The position numbers were made by a program, and so were the translations under genes. The notes beneath the pieces are model-generated. The model worked only from the letters and a program-made list of their open reading frames with translations. It did not search any database and was not told the DNA's origin. A stretch of 64,000 nucleotides of DNA from Planctomycetota bacterium. Lineage in GTDB: Bacteria > Planctomycetota > UBA1135 > UBA2386. Location of the stretch: the NCBI GenBank assembly GCA_947501605.1, contig CANMWZ010000001.1, positions 300,297-364,296 of the forward strand, written 5' to 3'. Shown piece after piece: positions 47,101 to 58,848 of the stretch (position 1 is the stretch's first letter; each line of letters starts with the position of its first letter).

Positions 47101-48046
47101 GCGCTACATGCTCGAACGCCTGCGCGCGGCGATCCAGCCAGTCAGCAAAGCCGACTTCGCCGACTTTCTGCGCCGCTGGCAGGGCCAAGAGCAGGAGCCG
47201 GGCAGGCACGGTCCACACGGACTGCGGCTGACGCTGCAGCAACTCGCCGGGCACAGCGCGCCGGTCGAAGCGTGGGACGAGGAGATCCTGCCGCAACGGC
47301 TTTCTGGCTACACCCGCGAGGTGCTCGACCAACTGACGCTCGCCGGCGAGTTCGTCTGGCTCCGTCTGTGGGGCAGCTGGCGCGGTCCACTGAGCAAGGC
47401 GCCGCTGTCGATCGTACCGCGCGAGGATCTGCACCTCTGGCTCGAGCTCCCGCTCGAACCGCCCGACGCGACGGCGCTCGGCTCGCACGCGAGCGCGCTG
47501 CGCGACTTGCTGCAGCAGCGCGGCGCATCGTTTCCAACGGATCTTCGGACCTGGAGTCGCATGCTGCCGAGCCAATTGGAAGACGGCCTCGCCGAGCTCC
47601 TTGGCTGCGGTTTCGCGACCTGCGACTCGTTCGCTGCCGCGCGCCAGTTGGCGGTGCCACCTAGTCGGCGTCGCCTACCGCTGCACACCGTCGGTCGCTT
47701 CCAGCTGATCGAGTGGCCGCCAGCAGCTCGCGCCAGCGACGCCGCCATCGAACATGCCGCGCGATCGATTCTGCGCCGGTTCGGAGTGGTCAGTCAAACT
47801 CTGCTGCAAGAAGAACGCGTGCCGCTGCCGTGGCGTCTCTTGTTGCGCTCCTTCCGTGCGCTCGAGTTGCAGGGCAAGGCGCGCGGCGGCAGGTTTGTGT
47901 CGGGATGGACCGGCGAGCAGTTTGCGGACCTCGAAGCTGTGCCGGCCCTGCGGGAGCAGCGTCGAAGCTCGGAACGCGCCCGCGCGCTCGCCGACCTGCG
48001 ACCAACCGCGCGCCAGTCCACGGCATCATCTGCTGGGGACAGCTGA
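44171..48046 (+). CDS. lhr: Lhr-family ATP-dependent DEAD/H-box helicase
   Basis: APTGSGKT, YVSPLKALSND, RTGDT, TTPESL, DEIH, GLSAT, HHGSLS, LELGIDIG, QRVGRAGH, C-terminal RGGRFVSGWTGEQF. Confidence 0.93.
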   Translation: MPLSNFHPTIQRWFGLELGKPSPPQREGWPAIARGDHVLLAAPTGSGKTLAAFLCALDQLLKLGPALTTATHVVYVSPLKALSNDVQKNLQAPLAALRALDPSLPELSVQVRTGDTPARERAAMLRTPPHILVTTPESLYLLLTTARGRQQLATVRTLIVDEIHALARDKRGSHFALSAERLDRLVQQHGGRLQRIGLSATQRPIAATAALLCGTDRACTIVDAGHRRELDLALELPSAPLDTVCSTETWNEIFARTTELILQHRTTLVFANTRKMTERIAARLAERLGKEHVTSHHGSLSKQRRLDAEQRLKRGELKALVATASLELGIDIGEVDLVIQIGPTPSIATFLQRVGRAGHGLHRTPKGRIVPLTRDELAAASALLLAVRRGDLDRTVQPVAPLDILAQQIVAVCCDEALPEDDLFALVRGAHPFRNLERARFDAVLAMHAGSRSALLHRDPIHRIVRATKRARLCAVTCGGAIPDVADYRVVLDHDDSLVGTVNEDFAIESSIGDVFQLGNTSWQVVRIGQGILRVRDAHGVPPSLPFWLGEAPSRSHELAAALSDVRTHGEDSSWLMQHCGIGGDAAEQLSTWLQDGKRALSAMPSHECLVLERFFDESGGQQLVVHSPFGARLNRAFGLALRKRFCVGFGFELQAAANDEAIVISLGPVHSFPLADVFSYLHPNSARDVLTQALLPAPMFQTRWRWNVTRSLLVERCRSGQRVPAPLLRFRADDALVAAFPAAQACPETLPPGPIDVPLEHPLVLQTISDCLHEAMDVDGLLGLLERIRRGAIGLVAVDTNTPSPFAQGILHAMPYAFLDDAPLEERRTQAAITAQRGARPAAAADHDLDPHALGLVQDEAWPDPCSPEELHEALGWMGWLENDELRPEWRPFLETLIGDGRAVAEGMRWFAAGQSREAKVLWEGRLQAVIPVFVDELADDDRTALLHLESAGSAMRARAFGREIFCHRRLLARVRRYMLERLRAAIQPVSKADFADFLRRWQGQEQEPGRHGPHGLRLTLQQLAGHSAPVEAWDEEILPQRLSGYTREVLDQLTLAGEFVWLRLWGSWRGPLSKAPLSIVPREDLHLWLELPLEPPDATALGSHASALRDLLQQRGASFPTDLRTWSRMLPSQLEDGLAELLGCGFATCDSFAAARQLAVPPSRRRLPLHTVGRFQLIEWPPAARASDAAIEHAARSILRRFGVVSQTLLQEERVPLPWRLLLRSFRALELQGKARGGRFVSGWTGEQFADLEAVPALREQRRSSERARALADLRPTARQSTASSAGDS

Positions 48047-48574
48047 GACCACCTTTGCCCAGTCGATTGCGTCTCCGGCCGCGCGATCGACCTGTCGGTG
48101 CACCAGCAAGCCCTGCGCGTCGAGCACGACGACGCCCCCCTGTTGCCACGGGTCGCCTTGCACCTTGGTCTGACGGTGCCCGGCAAGCAGAGCCCGCAGC
48201 ATGTTGAGGATCGCACCCAATCGCACAACCGTCCAAAGGCCGCGCCGCATCCCTGCCAACGCGAAGGCACGGCGCGTCGGATCACTCAGTACCGGCAAGC
48301 CGTTCGCGTGCTCGCGCGCAAACGACGCGGCCATCAGCGGTGCGCCCGTGCCGACGAAGACGATGCGCGCACCCTTGCCAAGGATGGACGCCGAATGCGA
48401 GCAGACCTCGGCAGCACGTTCGCGACAGAACAGACAGCCGAAGTGACGCACGAACACCACCACCGCGGGACCAACGAACGAACGCAGACTCGTGGCCACG
48501 CCAATGCTGTCGAGGAGTGGAGTGTCGAGCAACGACGCAGTGCCTGCGTCTCCAGCGAGAACCGAGCGAGTCAT
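48026..48574 (-). CDS. Peroxiredoxin-like (AhpC/TSA-2, PRXL2-like) redox protein
   Basis: VVVFVRHFGCLFCRE, SDPTRRAF, GDPWQQGG. Confidence 0.88.
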   Translation of the reverse strand: MTRSVLAGDAGTASLLDTPLLDSIGVATSLRSFVGPAVVVFVRHFGCLFCRERAAEVCSHSASILGKGARIVFVGTGAPLMAASFAREHANGLPVLSDPTRRAFALAGMRRGLWTVVRLGAILNMLRALLAGHRQTKVQGDPWQQGGVVVLDAQGLLVHRQVDRAAGDAIDWAKVVSAVPSR

Positions 48575-48618: not shown

Positions 48619-48650
48619 AAACAAAAAAACCGTGGCGAAGCACGTCCGTC
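48619..48650 (-). terminator. U-tract 3' end (intrinsic terminator-like) of the candidate ncRNA
   Basis: A long closing helix is immediately followed by GTTTTTTTGTTTG, a rare T-run in this GC-rich DNA. Confidence 0.6.
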
Positions 48651-49200
48651 ACCTGCTTGACGCAGGCCACTTCTCCTCATAACCGCGACCTGCGCCTGAC
48701 ACCGTGAACACGTTCGCCGACCCGATGACTCCAGTAGCACCACCAACCAGAGGTCGAATCGACGGCGCGTTCCCGGCTTGCAGAGCCGACGGACGTGCTT
48801 CGACTACACGGGGGGGGTCGCCCCCCTGGCCGATCCCAGGCTCGCCAGTCACTCGAACATGCGGATCCGATTACCGGACGCCTGCCCGAGCGACCTTCTG
48901 CCGAAGGCTCGCTCCCGATCACGAACATCGCCGGGTAGGCACAGGCGTTCGAGAGTACGCCTCTGCCCGGATAACCCGGACGACACTCCCGCTTGGCAAC
49001 TGCCGCAAAGCAGCACCGCGCGGAGATACGAAGGTTGCCTGCCTCGAACTGCACGACCGCAACGCCAGATGGCGACGGCTCGACCGCGGCAAAGCGGGAG
49101 CTCGAACGACACCGAGGAAGTGCCGCGGACGATGAAGTGAGGGAGGACATATGAGAACAACAACTCCGGCCGATAGTGGCCGAGAGCGCAGGAAGAACTC
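48622..49200 (-). ncRNA. Candidate large structured non-coding RNA (unassigned; the 3' ~180-nt domain is 6S-like in size)
   Basis: No credible protein on this strand. Nested helices CTCCCGCTT/AAGCGGGAG, CTCGAAC/GTTCGAG, GCCTACCCG/CGGGCAGGC, GAGCGAGCCTTC/GAAGGTCGCTC, and a perfect 15-bp CGAAGCACGTCCGTC/GACGGACGTGCTTCG followed by TTTTTTTGTTT. Confidence 0.6.
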
Positions 49201-49204
49201 TCCG

Positions 49205-49213
49205 AGCATAGCA
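49205..49213 (-). promoter_or_regulatory. Extended -10 promoter (TGCTATGCT) for the candidate ncRNA
   Basis: TGnTATGCT on the minus strand. The TATGCT hexamer also precedes lhr (44138) and the gene starting at 59319. Confidence 0.5.
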
Positions 49214-49414
49214 CGGGCCAAGTCCTTGCGAGCACACACGGGCGCAGCCGCTGCCAGCGCGGCACGCCGCAGAGGCGAACGTTCGACACGGCGCAACGCG
49301 CAACTGCTGTGCGACACCCGATGACATGAGCGCAACCAAGTCAGAGTCTCGATCGCAGACTTCATGGTTGTACGTTCCAGCGCACCTGCCGAAAAAGCAC
49401 CCATACCGCCGCCC

Positions 49415-51025
49415 ATGACCACCGCGCCATCCACCAGCACGCATGAAGCCTCCGTTCGTCTCCTCGGTGCGGTATCCCCCGCACAGAAACGGATCGTCGA
49501 TGACGGCGCGTTGGCGTTCGTCGTCGATCTCGAGCGCCGCTTCGGCAGCCGCCGCCGCGAACTCCTAGCGCTGCGCCAAGAGCGCCAGCGACGCCTCGAT
49601 GCCGGCGACACGCCGGACTTCCTGCCGGGAACTGCAGGCATCCGCAGCGGTGAATGGCAGGTGGCCCCGGTGCCCACGGAGCTGCTCGATCGCCGTATCG
49701 AGATCACCGGGCCCACCGACCGCAAGATGGTCATCAACGCGCTCAACAGTGGCGCGTCGGTGTTCATGGCGGACTTCGAAGATAGCCTCGCACCAACTTG
49801 GCAGAACGTCCTCGACGGCCAACAGAACCTGTTTGACGCCGTGCGCCGCACCATCGGCTTCACCGATGCGGCGACCGGCAAGCAATACGCGCTGTCGACG
49901 ACGCCAGCCGTCTTGTTCGTCCGACCGCGCGGCTGGCACCTCGAAGAGAAGAACCTGGAGATCGATGGTCGCCGCGCCTCGGCGTCGCTGTTCGACTTCG
50001 GCCTGTTCTTCTTCCACAACAGCAAGGAGCAGGTCGCGCGCGGCACAGCGCCGTACTTCTACCTGCCGAAGATGGAGAGTCACCTCGAAGCTCGGCTGTG
50101 GAACGACGTGTTCCGATACGCGCAAGAACGGCTGGGCCTCGCCCAAGGCACGATCAAGGCGACGGTGCTGATCGAGACGATTCTCGCTGCGTTCGAGATG
50201 GACGAAATCCTCTACGAACTGCGGCAGCACAGTGCCGGCCTCAACTGCGGCCGCTGGGATTACATCTTCTCGTTCATCAAGAAGTTCCGCGCCCACCAGG
50301 GGCGCGTGATCCCGGATCGGGCGAGCGTCACGATGACGCAGCACTTCCTCCGCAGCTACAGCCAGTTGCTGATCAAGACCTGCCACCGTCGCGCAGCGTT
50401 CGCGATGGGTGGCATGGCCGCGCAGATCCCGATCAAGAGCAACGCCGCCAAGAACGAGCAGGCGCTCGCCAAAGTCCGCGCCGACAAGAGCCGCGAAGCC
50501 AACGACGGTCACGACGGCACGTGGGTCGCTCACCCGGGTCTCGTCGCAATCGCCCGTGAGGAGTTCGATCGCGTTCTCGGAACGCGGAAGAACCAGCTCG
50601 ACGTGCTGCGTCTCGACGTCGACGTCCGCGCCACCGACCTGCTGCAAGTCCCGGAGGGCAAACTCACCGAGGCTGGGCTGCGCCAGAATCTCGACGTCGG
50701 CATCCAGTACCTCGAGGCCTGGCTCTCCGGCAATGGCTGCGTTCCGCTACACGACCTGATGGAGGACGCGGCGACCGCCGAGATCAGTCGCGTACAGCTC
50801 TGGCAATGGCTGCACCACGGCGCGAGTCTCGACAACGGCCGCCGCGTTGACGCGGCGTTGATTCGGACCACCCTCGCTGAAGTGCTCGCGTCGCTGCAGA
50901 GCACCCTTGGTCCCGCCACCTACGAGAAGCGCAGGTTCGACCTCGCCAGCACGCTCTTCCTCGACATGGTGTTGGGCAAGCAACTGCCCGACTTCCTCAC
51001 GACCGTCGCCTACGAACACATCTGA
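49415..51025 (+). CDS. aceB: Malate synthase A
   Basis: [84 protein letters not shown]. Confidence 0.97.
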
Positions 51026-51063
51026 ACAACGGGACGTCACCTGTCCCCTACCGCACTGCAACC

Positions 51064-52353
51064 ATGACCAACAGCTACCTTCCGCACCTGCGCGATCTCC
51101 CACAGAACCGGTTCGCTGGCATCCAACGCGATTACACGCCACAGGAGGTCGATCGCTTGCGCGGGTCGATCCGCATCGAGCACACGCTTGCAGCGCATGG
51201 AGCCAATCGCCTGTGGGCGCAACTCCACGGCGAGTCGTACATCGCCGCGCTCGGCGCGCTGACCGGCAACCAAGCGGTTCAGATGGTCAAGGCTGGCCTG
51301 CAGGCCATCTACCTGAGCGGCTGGCAGGTCGCGGCCGACGCGAACCTCTCGGGCCAGATGTACCCGGACCAGAGCCTCTACCCAGCGAACTCGGTGCCGA
51401 ACGTCGTGAAGCGCATCAACCAGGCATTCCAGCGTGCCGACCAGATCGCGCACATGGAGAACGACCACTCGACCAACTGGTTCGTACCGATCGTCGCCGA
51501 CGCAGAAGCAGGCTTCGGCGGACCGCTCAACGCCTTCGAACTGATGAAGCAGATGATCGAGGCTGGCGCCGCCGGTGTGCACTTCGAGGATCAGCTCGCA
51601 AGCGAGAAGAAGTGCGGACACCTCGGGGGCAAAGTCCTGGTCCCGACGCAGTCGTTCGTACGAACGCTCAACGCCGCACGACTCGCGGCCGACGTCTCGG
51701 GAGTCCCGACGGTCCTCGTCGCCCGCACCGACGCGGACGCAGCCGCTCTGCTGACGAGCGACATCGACGAACGTGACACTCCCTTCCTGACCGGCGAACG
51801 CACGTCGGAAGGGTTCTTTGTCACCAAGCCAGGCATCGACCAGGCGATTGCGCGTGGTCTCGCCTACGCCCCGTACGCGGACATGGTCTGGTGCGAAACC
51901 AGCAAGCCCGACCTCGCCCAAGCCAAGCGCTTTGCCGAGAGCATCAAGAAGCACTTCCCGAACAAGCTGCTCGCCTACAACTGCTCGCCGAGCTTCCACT
52001 GGAAGAAGCACCTCGACGACGCGACCATTGCCATGTTCCAACGCGAACTCGGCGCCATGGGCTACCGCTTCCAGTTCGTCACCTTGGCCGGCTTCCACGC
52101 GCTCAACTCCTCGATGTTCAACCTCGCGCACGACTACGCGCGCCGCGGCATGGCCGCCTACGTCGAGCTGCAGACCGCGGAGTTCGCCGCCGAGTCGAAG
52201 GGCTACACGGCGACGAAGCACCAACGCGAGGTCGGAACCGGCTACTTCGACGCGGTCACGCAAGCCGTGAGCCAGGGCAAGTCGTCGACCACGGCGCTGC
52301 ACGGCTCCACCGAGAGCGAGCAGTTCTCGACCACCGGCAAGAAGCCCTACTGA
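51064..52353 (+). CDS. aceA: Isocitrate lyase
   Basis: [62 protein letters not shown]. Confidence 0.98.
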
Positions 52354-52420: not shown

Positions 52421-54643
52421 TCAGAACCGCTGTTGCCAGTAGACGAACAGCGAGCGCGCATCCCAGTCGCGCAGACCGCCCTCGGCCTCGTAACGCGAGC
52501 AGCGGAACTCGGTCCCCACAGCACTGCGCTCCCCCGCGAGCAACAGGCGCAAGTCGCAGCGCCAATCCAGCGTCGTGACATCGAAGTCACCGCGAGTGTC
52601 GGTCCAGGCACCGGAGAGGTTCCACCGCACGTCGGCCGAAGGCGCGATCTGAAGCCCGCTGGTCACCGTGTTGGTATCACCCTGAAAGCCAACGATCGTG
52701 GGCGCCGGGTTCGGGTCCGGATCGAAGTAGAAGCTCGTGAGCGTGCGCATGTCCGTCCGCGCAAACGTGTAGGTCGCCGACAGGGCAAGTCCGGTGACGA
52801 GATCGAGGCCGGCCGTCAGGCCTGCTGTGATGGCGTCCAGTCGGTGCTGCGCGATGTCGTTCTCGTTGCGGCGATGACGCACGAAGACTGAACTGCGCGC
52901 GCGCTGCCCTTGCACTTGGACGCTAGCGGCAACCTGCCGCGCCCGCTCGGGTGTGAGCTCGTGCAGCAGTGCACCATCCGTCGCATAGTCGCGAATCTCG
53001 GCGCGCGCCGTCCAACCTGCCGCCGGCCGCCAGTGCACGTCCGCCATCACGCCGTCGTCCCGCTGCCGACCACTGCGGTAGGCAAGGGGGTCGAGTGGAT
53101 CCACGTCAGGAACCCGCAACCACTCGCGCGAAAAGCCGTAGCCGACACCTAGGTCGAGCGACTTCGATGCCGCCCATTCCAGCAGCGCATTGCCGTCGAT
53201 CATGCGCTGACCCGTGCGCTGGCTCACGTTCGTCGCCACGACGACCGTCGAAGGCAGAGTGGGATAGACGGTGGTATCCGTCTGTTGCAGTGCAAGGTCC
53301 TCGCCGTGATCGCGCCAGTGCAGGTCGCAGCGCAACCGAAGATCGCGCTCCAACTGCATCGAGCCATCGAGGTCGACCAACCATGTACGGGCGTGGCCAC
53401 CGCCACTCGCGTCGATGTCCGACGTGAACTCCGCGACGTCGAATCCCGTCGTCGTGCCAAAGGCGGTGATGCCACGTTCCCGGTCGAAGTGCCGCACCGA
53501 GGCTTCGACCTGCACTTCGTCGAGGTCGGCCCGGAGCAGCGCGGTGGCGCCAGGGCCACGCAGGCTCGTGCGCGACGTGAAGTTCTCGCTTTCGGTGAAC
53601 AACGGATTGGCCGTTGCCGGCTGCGTGTAGGTCCACGAGTCGCGAGCACTCTCGTCGTGGTAGAGCATTGCCGCGCGAAACGTGAACACGGAACCACGGC
53701 TGCTGAGGCCCAGTTCGGAATCGGTGCCAACTGCGTGGCGCGGGCTATCGACGCCATCGACGTAACTCTGCAGCGACAGGTTCTGGTTGCCGATCCGCTG
53801 CGTCAGCCAGTAGCCATCTTCGTCGAAGCGCTGGAACGAACCGAACAGCGACACATTGTCGTCGATGCGCAGATCGAAACGGGAGAGCATGCGTTCGGAC
53901 TCGCGATCCACGCGGTGGAAATCACCCTCGCCGCGGTATCGATAGCGTCCCTCGTGCCATTCGGCCTCGACCTCACCGACGTCGCGGTCGCGCACGTGCG
54001 CATCGAGGTCGCGCCGCGGGTCCCCGAGGTCGTGCCCGCGGATGCCCACTTCGTCGAGCGCGCTGCTGCTCGACCCCGCACCGGTCGCTTCGAACGTGCG
54101 GACTCGCAAGCCCGAGTGGAGGTCCACATCGGTGGCGTAGCCATCGCGCGAACCATCGACGTCCACGAAGCGGTAGCCGACATCGACCAGTCCCTTCCAC
54201 AGCAACGACGGCCGCTGGTCGCCGCGCTGAAGGGCGCGGACGAGGGCGTCGTCCCCAGCGCGCTGCGGCTGGGACGAACTCGTAGCGGGTGACGCGGCGG
54301 CCAGTCCGTGCGCGGCACGGCTGGTCGGGAACCGGGCGCCTTCGTGGCATTGGCTACAGCTCGCGGCCGCAACCGGAGCCACTGCCAACAACGCCTTGGC
54401 CGCATCACCGCCGCTTGCTCCCCGGCCGGCAGCGCGAACATGGGTCGTGAGGTCGCCGTGACACGCGGCGCAGCCGTGCCCTTCGATCTCACTGTGAATG
54501 GAATGGCGCAGACCCTGCGTCGGACCTGGATGACACACGCGGCAGGACAGGTCCGCCGTAGCGGTGCCCTGCTGCGCGGAGGTGACCCCGGCGACAATGG
54601 CGACAGCGAGCAAGGCTGCACCATGCGATCGCGCCAACTTCAT
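52421..54643 (-). CDS. Outer-membrane beta-barrel (MtrB/PioB-like) with fused N-terminal triheme c domain
   Basis: ATGA overlap with the upstream cytochrome. Signal peptide, then CRVCH, CAACH, CSQCH, then about 590 aa of amphipathic beta strands ending YWQQRF (terminal Phe). Confidence 0.82.
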   Translation of the reverse strand: MKLARSHGAALLAVAIVAGVTSAQQGTATADLSCRVCHPGPTQGLRHSIHSEIEGHGCAACHGDLTTHVRAAGRGASGGDAAKALLAVAPVAAASCSQCHEGARFPTSRAAHGLAAASPATSSSQPQRAGDDALVRALQRGDQRPSLLWKGLVDVGYRFVDVDGSRDGYATDVDLHSGLRVRTFEATGAGSSSSALDEVGIRGHDLGDPRRDLDAHVRDRDVGEVEAEWHEGRYRYRGEGDFHRVDRESERMLSRFDLRIDDNVSLFGSFQRFDEDGYWLTQRIGNQNLSLQSYVDGVDSPRHAVGTDSELGLSSRGSVFTFRAAMLYHDESARDSWTYTQPATANPLFTESENFTSRTSLRGPGATALLRADLDEVQVEASVRHFDRERGITAFGTTTGFDVAEFTSDIDASGGGHARTWLVDLDGSMQLERDLRLRCDLHWRDHGEDLALQQTDTTVYPTLPSTVVVATNVSQRTGQRMIDGNALLEWAASKSLDLGVGYGFSREWLRVPDVDPLDPLAYRSGRQRDDGVMADVHWRPAAGWTARAEIRDYATDGALLHELTPERARQVAASVQVQGQRARSSVFVRHRRNENDIAQHRLDAITAGLTAGLDLVTGLALSATYTFARTDMRTLTSFYFDPDPNPAPTIVGFQGDTNTVTSGLQIAPSADVRWNLSGAWTDTRGDFDVTTLDWRCDLRLLLAGERSAVGTEFRCSRYEAEGGLRDWDARSLFVYWQQRF

Positions 54644-56298
54644 CGGAACAACAACCGTGAATGGTTGCTGCCGTGGATCTCGGTGTGGCACCGAAGGCAG
54701 TTGGTGAAGACCGCGCCCGTGGTCTGATCGTGGAACGCCGGGAAGTCGCCATGACATGCCGTGCAGTTCTGCTGCGACGTCGCCTGCTGCAGCATGCGTC
54801 GATTGGGACTGCCGTGCGGGACATGACAGATGACGCAGCCATCGCGCCGGCCAGCTTGGTGCGCGAATACAAAAGGCCCGGCATAGCGCGGATGGCACCC
54901 GGCGCAGGACCGCTCGCGCAGGTCCAGATCGCGTACGCGAACACGCTGGCCATGCACGTCATGGCACGAACTGCAACCCATGCGGCCCTCGGGCACGGGA
55001 TGGTGGTTTGGCAGCGCGAACTCGGCGGCGACGCCGGGATGACAGTTGGCGCAGGTGCGCTCGGCGTCTTGCGCCGTACGAATGGACTCGGCACCGTGCA
55101 GCGGCCCGTGACAATCGGTGCATGCGACCTCGGCGCGTTGGTGCACACCGTGCTCGACTCGCGCGAGCTTTGCTTCGCTGCCATGGCAGGCAAGGCACGT
55201 ATCGGCCTGCTGCGCGGCGTTCTCGCCACCGCTCCGCGAAACGAGCGCGCGCGCACCGCTGCGTCGTGCATGCGCTTGCCCCCCCGCGTGGCATGACCCA
55301 CAGCCTGCCTCGAGCACGAGGTCGAGACCGCCGAGACTCGCATGCGTCGAACCAGGCATCGTGCATAGCGCCGGAACATGGCACTGGGCACATAGGCGGT
55401 TGGTCTCGGCCGGAGCCTGCAGCGGGACGGCATCCACCGCGCGCTGCTCGTCGGCGTAGCGCGCAACGTGCACGCGGTGGCAGGTCGTGCACGTGGCGCT
55501 TCTGGAGACGTGCTCGGGCATCCCCTGCCGCCAATGAAACCTCGTCGGATCCACCTCGACGTGGCACTGGCGACACGTAGCGACACCGTCATCCGCGTGA
55601 TCAGGCCGCGTGATCAGACCGGCGCGGCCGTTACTGGCGACGTGGGCCGCGCCATCGCCATGGCAGGTTTCGCACCCGTCCTGCGCATGGCTCGCCTGCA
55701 GACGGGCGTGGCCGCCAGACGCCAACAGCGCATCGCGCAGTGGATGGCAGGCGATGCAGGAAGCACTGCCAGCGGGCTCACTGCGCAGTTCGGCATCCGC
55801 GCGCGAGCGAAATGCCGGCGTAGCCGTCGCCGACGGATTCACCACTCGATGGATCTCGTGGCAATCCGTGCACGACTTGCCCGCGTAGCGAAGGCCTTCG
55901 ATGTCACCGCCATGCGCCGCGATGTGGTCCCGATGGCACGACGCGCACAACTCCTCCTGCTGTGCCGACGGCAGCTTCGGCGGCATCGTCACCAGCGCCA
56001 GATCCTGGCCGTCGTCGTCGGCGTGCGCGCGGCCCGGCCCATGGCACGTCTCGCAACCGTGCAACTCGGCGAGCGACAACACCTTCCCGTGCGGGTTCTG
56101 CACCAGCTTTCGCTTCTGCGGAGCATGACAACGGGCGCACTCTGCCTCGCCGACAAATGCGCCCGGTCGCAGCAACGGCGCGGTCTCGTCCTGCGCGGAC
56201 AACACGCTCGCTAGCGATGCAAACCAGATGACAACCGCGAGCCACACGCGTGCAGCGATGGGTAGTGGCGTTGCTGCGAGCCTTGTCGGTCTTGCCAT
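54640..56298 (-). CDS. 18-heme periplasmic c-type cytochrome, extended MtrA/DmsE family
   Basis: Signal peptide and 18 CxxCH motifs counted. DmsE/MtrA-like motifs CETCHGPG, GPFVFAH, CHVPHGS, CLRCHTEIHGSN. Confidence 0.92.
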   Translation of the reverse strand: MARPTRLAATPLPIAARVWLAVVIWFASLASVLSAQDETAPLLRPGAFVGEAECARCHAPQKRKLVQNPHGKVLSLAELHGCETCHGPGRAHADDDGQDLALVTMPPKLPSAQQEELCASCHRDHIAAHGGDIEGLRYAGKSCTDCHEIHRVVNPSATATPAFRSRADAELRSEPAGSASCIACHPLRDALLASGGHARLQASHAQDGCETCHGDGAAHVASNGRAGLITRPDHADDGVATCRQCHVEVDPTRFHWRQGMPEHVSRSATCTTCHRVHVARYADEQRAVDAVPLQAPAETNRLCAQCHVPALCTMPGSTHASLGGLDLVLEAGCGSCHAGGQAHARRSGARALVSRSGGENAAQQADTCLACHGSEAKLARVEHGVHQRAEVACTDCHGPLHGAESIRTAQDAERTCANCHPGVAAEFALPNHHPVPEGRMGCSSCHDVHGQRVRVRDLDLRERSCAGCHPRYAGPFVFAHQAGRRDGCVICHVPHGSPNRRMLQQATSQQNCTACHGDFPAFHDQTTGAVFTNCLRCHTEIHGSNHSRLLFR

Positions 56299-56301
56299 GA
56301 C

Positions 56302-58770
56302 TCAGCGTTGGCTGGCGCCGGCATCGATCCAACTGCGCACGACCTCGAGCCCGCGAGCATCGAGCGGCGGGAGCAGAAGCGGCATCTGTGCGCCATAGGC
56401 CGGCAGGCGGTCAGCAAGCTTGCGATAGAAGGCCGAGGCCGCCGCGTTGCCTGGCACGAGTAACGGCGAGGGCAGTCGGCTGTCGCCCGGCCTGACCAGA
56501 GCCGCGAGCGTGTCGCAGCGGTAGTTGCCTTGAGCATTGCCACCGAAGTGGCAGGCGCCGCACTTCTGCAGCAACAAGGGTCGCACCTGCCGCGACCAAC
56601 TGATCGCAGCATCGGCGGGCGGGGCGTCACTGGCGTCCCCCGTGACGATCGCACCTACAAGTACAGGCAAGCGGCCGAACTCGCCGCCAGCTGCCAGCGG
56701 TTCGAAGATGCCGTCACCGTTGGTGTCGGGCAGTCCGTCGCCGGCAGGTTCATTGTTGGTCGACCACGCGGCATGGATCAGCGCCGGTCGCAACAGCAGT
56801 AGCCACCGATCGCGATTGGGCGCCGCATTGGCCACACCCGCCGCGATCGCGGTTCGCAGCGCCGCGAGCACTTCGGCGATATCGCTCGGCGCGTAGCGCG
56901 CCAGGGAGTGCTGCGGATCGGTGCGGAAGGAACCGGTCTCGACATCGAGGAAGTCGGTCAGCATGGCCGAGGCCGCCCGCAGTCCGGCCTCGCGAACAGC
57001 GAGATCGCCGGTGACACGCGCGGCGTCGAGCAAACCCGCCGTCAGGGCGGCATGGTCGGCGAGCCCGGCCAGGCCGAAAGCGCCCGGCGTGTGCGTGACG
57101 GCATCCACGACGCGGCCCTCGGCCGTGACCATCTGCGCCCGCGCAAACGACGACGCGGCGACCAGCACGTCGAAGGCGCGCAGCCCGTCGTACTCCAGGT
57201 CCGGCAGCGCGTTGACTACCAGTGCGAGCGCCTGCAGTGCACGCCCGGTGGTCGCTGCCGTAGCCACGCTCGAGCGGCTGTCCCCTTCGTGGCGGTGATG
57301 TAGCGCACCGCTGCTGCGCTCGAAGTGCATCGACACGAGATTCTGGAACGCGATCGTCGCGAGCCGCAATCCAGGCGGCGGTGGACCGGGCACGACCGGC
57401 GAATCGAGCAGCGCGCCTTGGTCGATCCAATCGGCGACCTGCGCGACTTCGGTCGCGGGCATCGGTGCGCCCGGCGGCATCCGCAAGAACGGGAACGGCG
57501 GCCCGATCAGGGTTGTCCACAGCAGGCTCGCGGTGTGATTGCCGGGCACGACCATGGGCAATCCCAGCGCGCGCGACCGATTGCCACCCGCGAGCAACAG
57601 AGGCAACGTGTCGACGCGGAAGCCGCCGGTGCCGAAGAACAGGTGGCAGTTACCGCAACGGAACTGCATCAGATCGCGGATGCCGCCATTCCAACTCGGC
57701 ACGGGCGGCGGCGGCGGCCCCGCAGGCAAGGTTGGAAAGACGTCGCGGAACACCGCGCGCAGCACCGGCGACGGCTGCTCGTCGCTGGCGATCCACGCCA
57801 GCTCGGCGGCCGCTGCCATCGTCATCGCGAGGCCACCAAGATCGCTGGCAACGTCGCGCACGCGATAGCCGGCGACGATGCCGGCGTCCTCGATGACTTC
57901 CAACTCGGCGGGCCACCAACGCAACCCCGCTTGCGGGTCGTAGCTGCCCGGGTCGTCGAAGGCGCCGAGCGGCCCGCCGGCGGTCGACATCGCGCGCAGC
58001 AGTTCCTCTTCGCATGCGAGCAGTTGCTCGACGAGCAGCAGGCCTAGCAGCCCCTCCTCCGCGCTGCCGCCAAAAGCGGCATTGCGACTGCGGCTCAGCA
58101 GAGCGCGCGCGGCCTGCACGCGGCCCGCCATCGACGCCGCCACGTCCTCCAGCTTCACGATCCGCGTGCCAGAGCTGCGCGTGCGCCACAGCTCGAGGTC
58201 GCGCTCCAAGCCGGCGCTGGAGCGCACCGCAAGGTCGGCACTGCCATCGCGCCAAGGCAGCATCGGCAGCCGGAGCCCGGCCGGAGGCACCGCGCCGGCA
58301 AAGCCTGCCACGCGGGCGATCTCCGCCGTCAAGGTCTCGTCGAGGTTGCGGCCATCGCCGTTGCCGTCGGCAGGAGCACCGCTGGCTAGGCTGAGCCGTC
58401 GAATCCGTTGTGCACCCAGCAGGTCAGGCCCAGCCCCCATGCCGAGGCCGACCGAACGCAAATGGTCGAGTGCGATCGCCGCGGCCGATTTCGACAGCGA
58501 GAGTTCGCGGATACTGCCGTCGCCGCGCAACGGCAAGGCGTCCGTACGGCCGCTGGTCAGCAGGAGTTCTGCGGCGAGACGATCCGCATCGCCACGCGTA
58601 CGCGACGACTCCGCTCGCGCTGCCGTCGAGGACGGAACGAGGGGCGCTGGCGCAACGGCACTACCACCACCGCATGACGCGAGGAAGAGCAGAACCAACG
58701 ACAGGGCCGGGACGGGTCGTGGGGCTAGGTGCACGGAAGGGATGCGAGGGGCCGAGGAGGCTCTGAGCAT
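56302..58770 (-). CDS. Lipoprotein with two planctomycete-type cytochrome c domains and a helical YyaL-like segment
   Basis: Lipobox FLASC-GGG. SWNGGIRDLMQFRCGNCH...RMPP...WIDQGA and SWSRQVRPLLLQKCGACH...QMP...WIDAGA. LADHAALTAGLLDAARVTGD...FLDVETGSF lies between them. Confidence 0.82.
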   Translation of the reverse strand: MLRASSAPRIPSVHLAPRPVPALSLVLLFLASCGGGSAVAPAPLVPSSTAARAESSRTRGDADRLAAELLLTSGRTDALPLRGDGSIRELSLSKSAAAIALDHLRSVGLGMGAGPDLLGAQRIRRLSLASGAPADGNGDGRNLDETLTAEIARVAGFAGAVPPAGLRLPMLPWRDGSADLAVRSSAGLERDLELWRTRSSGTRIVKLEDVAASMAGRVQAARALLSRSRNAAFGGSAEEGLLGLLLVEQLLACEEELLRAMSTAGGPLGAFDDPGSYDPQAGLRWWPAELEVIEDAGIVAGYRVRDVASDLGGLAMTMAAAAELAWIASDEQPSPVLRAVFRDVFPTLPAGPPPPPVPSWNGGIRDLMQFRCGNCHLFFGTGGFRVDTLPLLLAGGNRSRALGLPMVVPGNHTASLLWTTLIGPPFPFLRMPPGAPMPATEVAQVADWIDQGALLDSPVVPGPPPPGLRLATIAFQNLVSMHFERSSGALHHRHEGDSRSSVATAATTGRALQALALVVNALPDLEYDGLRAFDVLVAASSFARAQMVTAEGRVVDAVTHTPGAFGLAGLADHAALTAGLLDAARVTGDLAVREAGLRAASAMLTDFLDVETGSFRTDPQHSLARYAPSDIAEVLAALRTAIAAGVANAAPNRDRWLLLLRPALIHAAWSTNNEPAGDGLPDTNGDGIFEPLAAGGEFGRLPVLVGAIVTGDASDAPPADAAISWSRQVRPLLLQKCGACHFGGNAQGNYRCDTLAALVRPGDSRLPSPLLVPGNAAASAFYRKLADRLPAYGAQMPLLLPPLDARGLEVVRSWIDAGASQR

Positions 58771-58848
58771 ACTCAATCACGCCACCCTCGGGGCCAACAC
58801 CCGACCAGCGACCCGAAGAGGGCAGCGCCGGTCAGCGGCACGAGCGCT

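Follow-up and report, generated by a model that had tools for sequence, protein, structure and literature searches.

Few large bacterial RNAs combine pseudoknots with invariant loops, and those that do have often turned out to be catalysts or core machinery; the orphan classes among them are few, known chiefly from Bacillota, Actinomycetota and phages. In tmRNA, a pseudoknot accompanies an internal frame whose stop may fall in a hairpin loop; T-box RNAs and RNase P contact CCA; and in the rep genes of IncI and IncB plasmids, translation of a leader frame controls the fold of the RNA through a pseudoknot switch. Among the orphans, ROOL env-120 measures 659 nt and GOLLD is often longer than 800 nt, both with pseudoknots and both of unknown function (PMC12286853), and the raiA motif is described as an RNA of about 200 nt without a coding region in more than 2,500 species of Bacillota and Actinomycetota (PMC10861870).

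The RNA considered here was picked out by an initial annotation of the window (the whole 64,000-nt stretch of a Planctomycetota genome that was analysed) as a large, undescribed non-coding RNA. That central proposal has held: the RNA is conserved, covarying, preceded by a -10-like box and uncatalogued within reach of Rfam 15 and the literature. On sequence comparison it appears to be a new family within the loose class of large orphan structured RNAs, matching no Rfam family and displaying, in few sequences, the covarying multi-helix fold, pseudoknot and invariant loops of that class. It is very probably a real conserved RNA gene, and action in trans as a folded molecule is slightly favoured. 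The preferred reading as a whole, a stand-alone gene for a structured non-coding RNA of about 575 nt, of a new family and trans-acting as a folded RNA or RNP, has roughly an even chance of being right.

Locus, relatives and conserved fold

The neighbours of the RNA in the window are genes for an Lhr helicase, an AhpC-like protein, aceB and aceA, and the same neighbours recur in homologous loci wherever flanks are present, with both the AhpC-like gene and aceB in six of the eight homologues. The gap between them had been called gene-free, which is true for protein genes, although an open frame (48677-49444) spans the element. Elsewhere on the minus strand of the window (52421-58776) lie three long frames, read by eye only: one at 54640-56298 has many CxxCH motifs and resembles a multiheme cytochrome, another, of 825 aa, looks like an outer-membrane barrel and has one haem motif, and the last, of 824 aa, carries haem motifs. 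The features are as follows.

48026..48574, minus strand: AhpC-TSA_2 (peroxiredoxin-like) gene, the 3' neighbour (PF13911, E 2.3e-11); context, outside the RNA
48623..49198, minus strand: whole RNA, about 575 nt (minimum free energy z -5.64; homologues 573-587 nt)
48623..48629, minus strand: U7 tail, in this genome alone the probable 3' end (from the sequence; homologues end otherwise)
48630..48811, minus strand: 3' domain, a long closing helix with internal loop, a three-way junction and two arms (identity, z -5.2, arm covariation)
48659..48696, minus strand: arm 2, with the invariant UGAGGAGA loop at 48679-48672 (8/8; single genome copy)
48677..49150, minus strand: open frame, 157 codons, from a conserved AUG to the UGA of the loop, without sign of protein-level selection
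48729..48752, minus strand: tip of arm 1, with the invariant GGUUGGUGGUGCU loop (8/8 complete sequences; sole exact copy in the genome)
48813..48831, minus strand: GGCCA, then a 5-bp G-C hairpin with a GCRA tetraloop (invariant in 9/9 except the loop R)
48826..48911, minus strand: three variable hairpins, P5 (GNRA loop in this genome), P6 (92% of cells paired) and P7 (84%)
48912..48955, minus strand: pseudoknot, 48955-48949 with 48918-48912 (8 pairs, 96.9% of cells paired, n=8)
48937..48968, minus strand: helix P4, whose 10-nt loop bears the 5' strand of the pseudoknot (11 pairs, 6 with two-sided changes, 78.6% of cells paired)
48975..49198, minus strand: putative variable 5' scaffold, a small 5' hairpin and then helix P2 (identity among deep lineages 53-58% against 51-52% shuffled)
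49205..49213, minus strand: promoter-like extended -10 box, TG-n-TATGCT (TAnnnT in 8/8 homologues; predicted start about 49198)
49364..52353, plus strand: malate synthase (aceB) and isocitrate lyase (aceA) genes, divergent (PF01274, PF00463); context

Eight homologues were found, giving nine related sequences (seven of them complete, the exceptions being G001, without its 3' end, and L108, without its 5' part) from about three deep lineages in two genera of one Planctomycetota family. BLAST of 61 related genomes gave matches in 21 at E 0.01, with long core matches only in five besides the genome itself, namely all four genomes of the same genus (G001-G004) and one of the sister genus (G018); an exact pattern run over a collection of species representatives returned the same five, the named relatives being Planctomycetota MAGs. 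The RNA is single-copy in the genome. A scan of metagenomes for the loop motif gave 55 hits, four of which scored above 200 bits with covariance model R1, three of them new and one a repeat of G002; the other 51 were discarded as chance. Model R1 detected five of 91 family genomes (G001, cut by its contig, was missed) and three of 151 order genomes, the third of these being set aside for sitting in a coding region, as was a weak match inside a 953-aa frame among the five genomes searched more deeply. With model R2 there were six strong family hits (115-188 bits) and further matches, none above 30 bits, in 25 of the 91 family genomes and 14 of 151 from the phylum; the five weak loci mapped all overlap long frames, and R1 found nothing in 28 of the weak loci. 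BLAST with the core matched one of 401 phylum genomes, its own. The loop motif with one mismatch occurs in 59 of 301 class genomes, and none of the 30 such loci tested with R1 exceeded 17 bits; nothing convincing came from R1 on 25 AhpC loci and one viral motif hit, nor on 24 aceB loci. The wider genome searches yielded no further homologues with 2-150 candidates scored per genome, a number small enough that diverged copies may escape them.

Folding of the 579-nt minus strand (48622-49200) reaches -291.4 kcal/mol against a dinucleotide-shuffle mean of -251.8, and none of 100 shuffles does as well (z -5.64). The excess stability rises along the molecule, with z of -1.7 in the 5' 210 nt, -3.4 in the middle and -5.2 in the 3' 210 nt, where none of 67 random 210-nt windows from the same stretch falls below -3.7; homologues of 573-587 nt give z from -3.0 to -13.5 (12 shuffles each). 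The GNRA loops, UUCG loops and G-U pairs agree with the minus strand as the sense strand. In a structure of 81 pairs, 92.1% of cells are paired, against 87.0% when shuffled and 38-42% when slid. Two-sided changes occur in 19 of the 81 pairs against 8.3 in shuffles, with 0 of 500 shuffles reaching that number, which counts as support for the fold and not as a probability, because the structure was hand-set from one row of eight sequences and these are related, a relatedness that the shuffle test ignores.

Between deep lineages the 3' 205 nt keep 67-72% identity against 59-60% at four-fold sites of aceB, and the core keeps 67-86% against 53-64% in the upstream gap. The conserved core is the 3' 330 nt, with the pseudoknot, the GNRA hairpin and the three-way junction with its two invariant loops. 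In the pseudoknot, where the P4 loop pairs with a downstream YYGGGAGC, two pairs show two-sided and two one-sided changes; changes in P6 and P7 are mostly one-sided. The GGCCA-side hairpin, like the other most invariant helices, gives no covariation support because its pairs never vary. In the 5' part, helix P2, in which a conserved AUGUCC (49150-49145) is paired, closes off about 120 nt of variable sequence; it is predicted with high probability in G002, G004 and L129, largely in G018 and weakly in this genome. The C run at about 48810-48817 has eight letters in this genome and in the contigs from RNA runs X1 and X9 but seven in all other homologues, and seven is also what gene calls imply for other strains and a close relative.

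Comparison among relatives also redrew part of the fold first proposed for this RNA. Its 5' hairpin (49182-49167) and its GGGGG-GCGA-CCCCC hairpin (48825-48813) are present, and the strands of its domain 1 are found at 49100-49092 and 48994-48986 in this genome, where alone that closing helix pairs fully or nearly so; homologues form 2-3 of its nine pairs, at poorly aligned 5' columns. The closing helix of domain 2 did not survive, as it pairs fully or nearly so in this genome alone, homologues pair at 2-3 of seven positions, and the helix overlaps, and is incompatible with, the conserved pseudoknot; the fold first drawn for the middle of the RNA is wrong, and comparison puts there the long stem P4 whose loop forms that pseudoknot. 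Two further elements, a 9-bp junction helix (1-5 of nine pairs in homologues) and a CCGG hairpin (0-2 of four), pair fully or nearly so in this genome only. Domain 3 does have the perfect 15-bp helix near its base, but the outermost closure is a further 5-bp helix beyond an internal loop.

Promoter, ends and RNA libraries

The claimed extended -10, TGCTATGCT at 49213-49205, is present, and a TAnnnT box is kept in all eight homologues with this end, 365-382 nt 5' of the GGCCAG anchor. The spacing of the box from this invariant motif fixes the length of the RNA near 575 nt. The TG extension occurs in four of the eight, and a two-hexamer promoter scan made no call on the box.

The terminator fared differently from the promoter: the U7 is there (48629-48623), but no canonical intrinsic terminator was called, a U7 occurs in one of eight 3' ends, and no terminator consistent across homologues was seen. 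G003 and L129 have a separate hairpin with a U-rich tail, G002, G004 and L099 a short alternative hairpin, and G018 nothing clear; in G002, G004 and L099 the 3' strand of the RNA is able to pair with downstream sequence. Directly 3' of the RNA in G002 (L009, about 1482-1498), the closing helix has its 5' strand repeated in a second copy, 17 nt long, which makes a perfect alternative hairpin. This copy, the occurrence in two genera only and the invariant sequence of the terminal helix could be read as traces of a mobile element or repeat, with inverted ends that pass for the closing helix. Such a remnant is very improbable given a single copy at one locus across lineages, a conserved promoter, a pseudoknot and G-U-tolerant covariation, with nothing similar to the RNA found in phages, plasmids or viral contigs; a MITE or repeat was likewise rejected on one copy at one locus.

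Part of the 1.9-kb stretch around the RNA is contained in 15 of 18 listed RNA runs from seven studies. Four of the 18 were compared in detail, runs with small shares being left out, and contigs over the RNA occur in three of these (X1, X9 and X7), giving neither strand nor level. In X1, an exact 757-nt contig starts at 49193, 12 nt below the -10 box, and runs into the AhpC-like gene, leaving the promoter gap uncovered; in X7, 48811-49018 is covered; in X4, both flanking genes are covered and the element is not. In X9, contigs lie over 48703-48901, and their depth figures, 165.5 and 68, compare with 16.4 at most among the other pieces listed. The RNA is thus present in libraries; depth cannot rank genes and no more than hints at abundance. 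One 121-nt contig of X9 joins 48703 back to 48793, a 91-nt cycle with four shared letters at the joint and a depth of 68, seen in one run; it may stem from a circular fragment, from a switch during reverse transcription or from a duplication in a strain. Against a stand-alone RNA stand two of these observations, namely the contig that continues into the AhpC-like gene, as a leader would, and the inconsistent terminator.

The open frame and the neighbouring gene

One property of the element is unexplained by a pure non-coding RNA. The frame from the conserved AUG is open for 128-160 codons in all seven complete homologues found by DNA searches, and column or block shuffles of the alignment leave a frame this open in 0-2 of 4000 trials, in a test devised after the data were seen and with six frames possible. 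The distance from AUG to loop UGA is a multiple of three in 7/7, despite the invariant motifs being read in different frames across the three deep lineages; an eighth sequence has UUG at the AUG position. Gene calls of further relatives begin with Met-Ser and share that stop, with one pair 8-10 codons shorter, and these protein-found cases were selected for being open. The stop itself is not fixed: in G003, G001 and L108 a UAG cuts the frame short by about 30 codons; in strains of this species or a close one, and in a close relative, the C run is one base shorter and the stop comes nine codons later; and in one form a G-run frameshift ends the frame at 114 codons. In another relative, a different frame runs for 246 codons without a stop; at this G+C, then, long open frames come about readily.

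That the frame is an ordinary small protein gene with a folding mRNA might be supposed from its being called by gene callers in public data. Substitutions by codon position are flat, however (15/20/17 and 13/14/12), where the AhpC control has a strong third-position bias (8/7/36 and 9/4/27), the three lineages use different frames, and there is no Pfam match. Against 1.84 billion representatives the frame gave seven hits, six being this element and the seventh a low-complexity repeat, and other protein searches with it found only this element or nothing. An ordinary protein gene is refuted on the present data.

Functional translation of the frame is a tentative possibility. One form of it supposes that ribosomes start at the AUG sequestered by P2 and traverse the pseudoknot and 3' domain, the peptide being irrelevant, and that their transit melts the fold, so that the RNA would fold and act, or survive Rho and nucleases, according to the translation activity of the cell. 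The openness of the frame in 7/7, its preserved length in multiples of three and the Met-Ser gene calls speak for such a switch, and yet the stop position varies, there is no Shine-Dalgarno sequence before the AUG, and the post hoc test, the selected protein-found cases and the ease of long frames at this G+C all weigh on it; the switch is unlikely. A bolder version would make one molecule both mock mRNA and folded effector. Ribosome traffic over a 150-codon frame free of sequence constraint would keep the RNA unfolded; when initiation drops, P2 would bury the AUG, the pseudoknot and 3' junction would form, and the exposed Shine-Dalgarno-like and CCA-complementary loops would bind idle 30S subunits or uncharged tRNAs. 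This version is decidedly improbable. If true, RNA alone would both sense translation status and serve as the effector, in contrast to tmRNA, riboswitches and leader-peptide attenuators.

The AhpC-like gene lies on the same strand 57-170 nt 3' of the RNA in all eight sequences with that end, raising the reading that the RNA is a long cis leader or attenuator of this gene, for example one sensing selenocysteine insertion at the loop UGA or one whose 3' strand switches between the closing helix and a downstream hairpin. The pairing of the 3' strand with downstream sequence in G002, G004 and L099 and the contig that runs into the gene would suit it. So would the family to which the gene belongs: 44 of 50 AhpC-TSA_2 family matches (among them loci L045-L074) have one in-frame TGA, and the genome has a tRNA-Sec gene. 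In the genus of this genome, however, the AhpC-like gene has Cys and not Sec. The RNA is absent upstream at 25 of 30 AhpC loci, which have other neighbours there, and seven of those 25 have a -10-like box of their own just 5' of the start, by eye; the gene therefore does not need the RNA as a leader. A SECIS test found a 6-bp hairpin after the loop UGA in this genome, its strands shared with the main fold, and a weak or absent one in G002, G018 and L108, unlike the SECIS-like hairpin of the family. The downstream arrangement varies by lineage, and 575 nt with a variable 5' third far exceeds what a leader needs. A cis leader is accordingly improbable.

Two observations concern the AhpC-like family itself. 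At the loci inspected, its in-frame TGA occupies a cysteine codon position, with a conserved hairpin after it, and the protein is therefore probably a selenoprotein. At L048, L051, L053, L054, L057, L070 and L072, a TAnnnT box lies few bases 5' of the AhpC-like start, which suggests, by eye, leaderless transcripts from a box close to the start codon.

Candidate function and comparison with known RNAs

For the preferred reading, a trans-acting folded RNA, a mechanism can be sketched. Transcription would be driven by the -10 box, beginning near 49198 and ending near 48625; the 5' third, which is variable, would act as scaffold; and the pseudoknot, GNRA hairpin and three-way junction would form a working core that offers the two loops to a partner. 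The loops are invariant and therefore point to a fixed partner. The UGAGGAGA loop is Shine-Dalgarno-like and starts with UGA, and its GAGGAG, which is taken here to be complementary to the anti-Shine-Dalgarno end of 16S rRNA, could pair with that end; the UGGUGGU loop could do so with the CCA ends of tRNAs where these are free. The single likeliest mechanism would be modulation through binding to the ribosome or to tRNA, and such a partner in particular is nonetheless doubtful. The assembly lacks the 3' end of 16S rRNA; a Shine-Dalgarno-like word occurs at 18% of crudely called starts; and the duplexes of UGGUGGU with several tRNAs and tmRNA (-14 to -18 kcal/mol) were calculated without a control. 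The loops would be accounted for just as well by a protein partner or by tertiary contacts inside the RNA. Complements to both loops are present within the 5' part of the RNA itself, but at varying, non-homologous places, which gives no fixed 5'-3' kissing contact, and a search for mRNA targets in trans gave no second exact match in the genome to either loop or to its complement. A sponge of the CsrB/RsmZ type was rejected, with one invariant GGA loop and PF02599 (CsrA) not found in the 91%-complete genome.

The pseudoknot with a frame ending in a loop recalls tmRNA, and the UGG-bearing loop recalls the contacts of T-box RNAs and RNase P with CCA, so that a highly diverged known RNA (RNase P, tmRNA, 6S, SRP, intron or T-box) deserves consideration. 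As first claimed, there is no match: Rfam 15 gave three chance hits in the window (14.8-20.7 bits), none in the element, and four in six homologous loci, none over a core, so that no score in these seven loci approaches the families named; ARAGORN called no tRNA or tmRNA in the window. Elsewhere, the genome has an RNase P at C5:99337-99702 (261.7 bits), its only RF00010 match, a tmRNA at C2:293304 (169.7 bits) and an SRP RNA (69.3 bits), and RNase P, tmRNA and 6S were rejected as identities for the RNA, the genome's matches to them lying elsewhere. The 6S candidate (G000:C67:2020-2210, L035), the only one in the genome, sits in an intergenic gap and scores 37.7 bits, under the 46.4 cut-off. 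A diverged member of these families has a very small chance of being the answer. No description of the RNA was found in the literature searched; large candidate-RNA catalogues such as PMC10690425 or PMC11109978 could contain an overlapping motif.

The fold is distinct, comes from uncultured Planctomycetota and has a defined core, about 330 nt long, that is amenable to transcription in vitro, probing and imaging. Its long frame without amino-acid constraint raises the question of whether translation can gate the folding of a large RNA. Its general weight is limited by the narrow spread over two genera.

Like tmRNA, the RNA combines a pseudoknot with an internal frame that stays open up to a stop in a loop, but it has no tRNA-like domain or CCA end, its frame is ten times longer and unconserved, and the real tmRNA of the genome lies on another contig. 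The IncI/IncB rep switches differ in having a rep gene, and no antisense RNA was seen here; the AhpC-like gene 3' of the RNA seems to have its own promoter in relatives. Where 6S RNA is a single long hairpin with a central bubble, the 3' domain here is a three-way junction. The raiA motif is likewise stand-alone, pseudoknotted, endowed with invariant unpaired nucleotides and of unknown function (PMC10861870); it has two pseudoknots and lies beside raiA/comFC, whereas the present RNA has one pseudoknot shown, other neighbours, about 575 nt, two Planctomycetota genera, a long open frame and no Rfam match. ROOL and GOLLD belong to phages and prophages, often near tRNA islands, while this RNA is chromosomal, lies between metabolic genes, has no homologue in the viral or phage sets and no Rfam match. 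A homo-oligomer held by kissing loops is a mark of ROOL, GOLLD and OLE; in this RNA the complements of the GAGGAG loop in the 5' part fall at non-homologous places. With those three it nevertheless shares a similar size class, pseudoknots and a poorly conserved linker region (PMC12286853).
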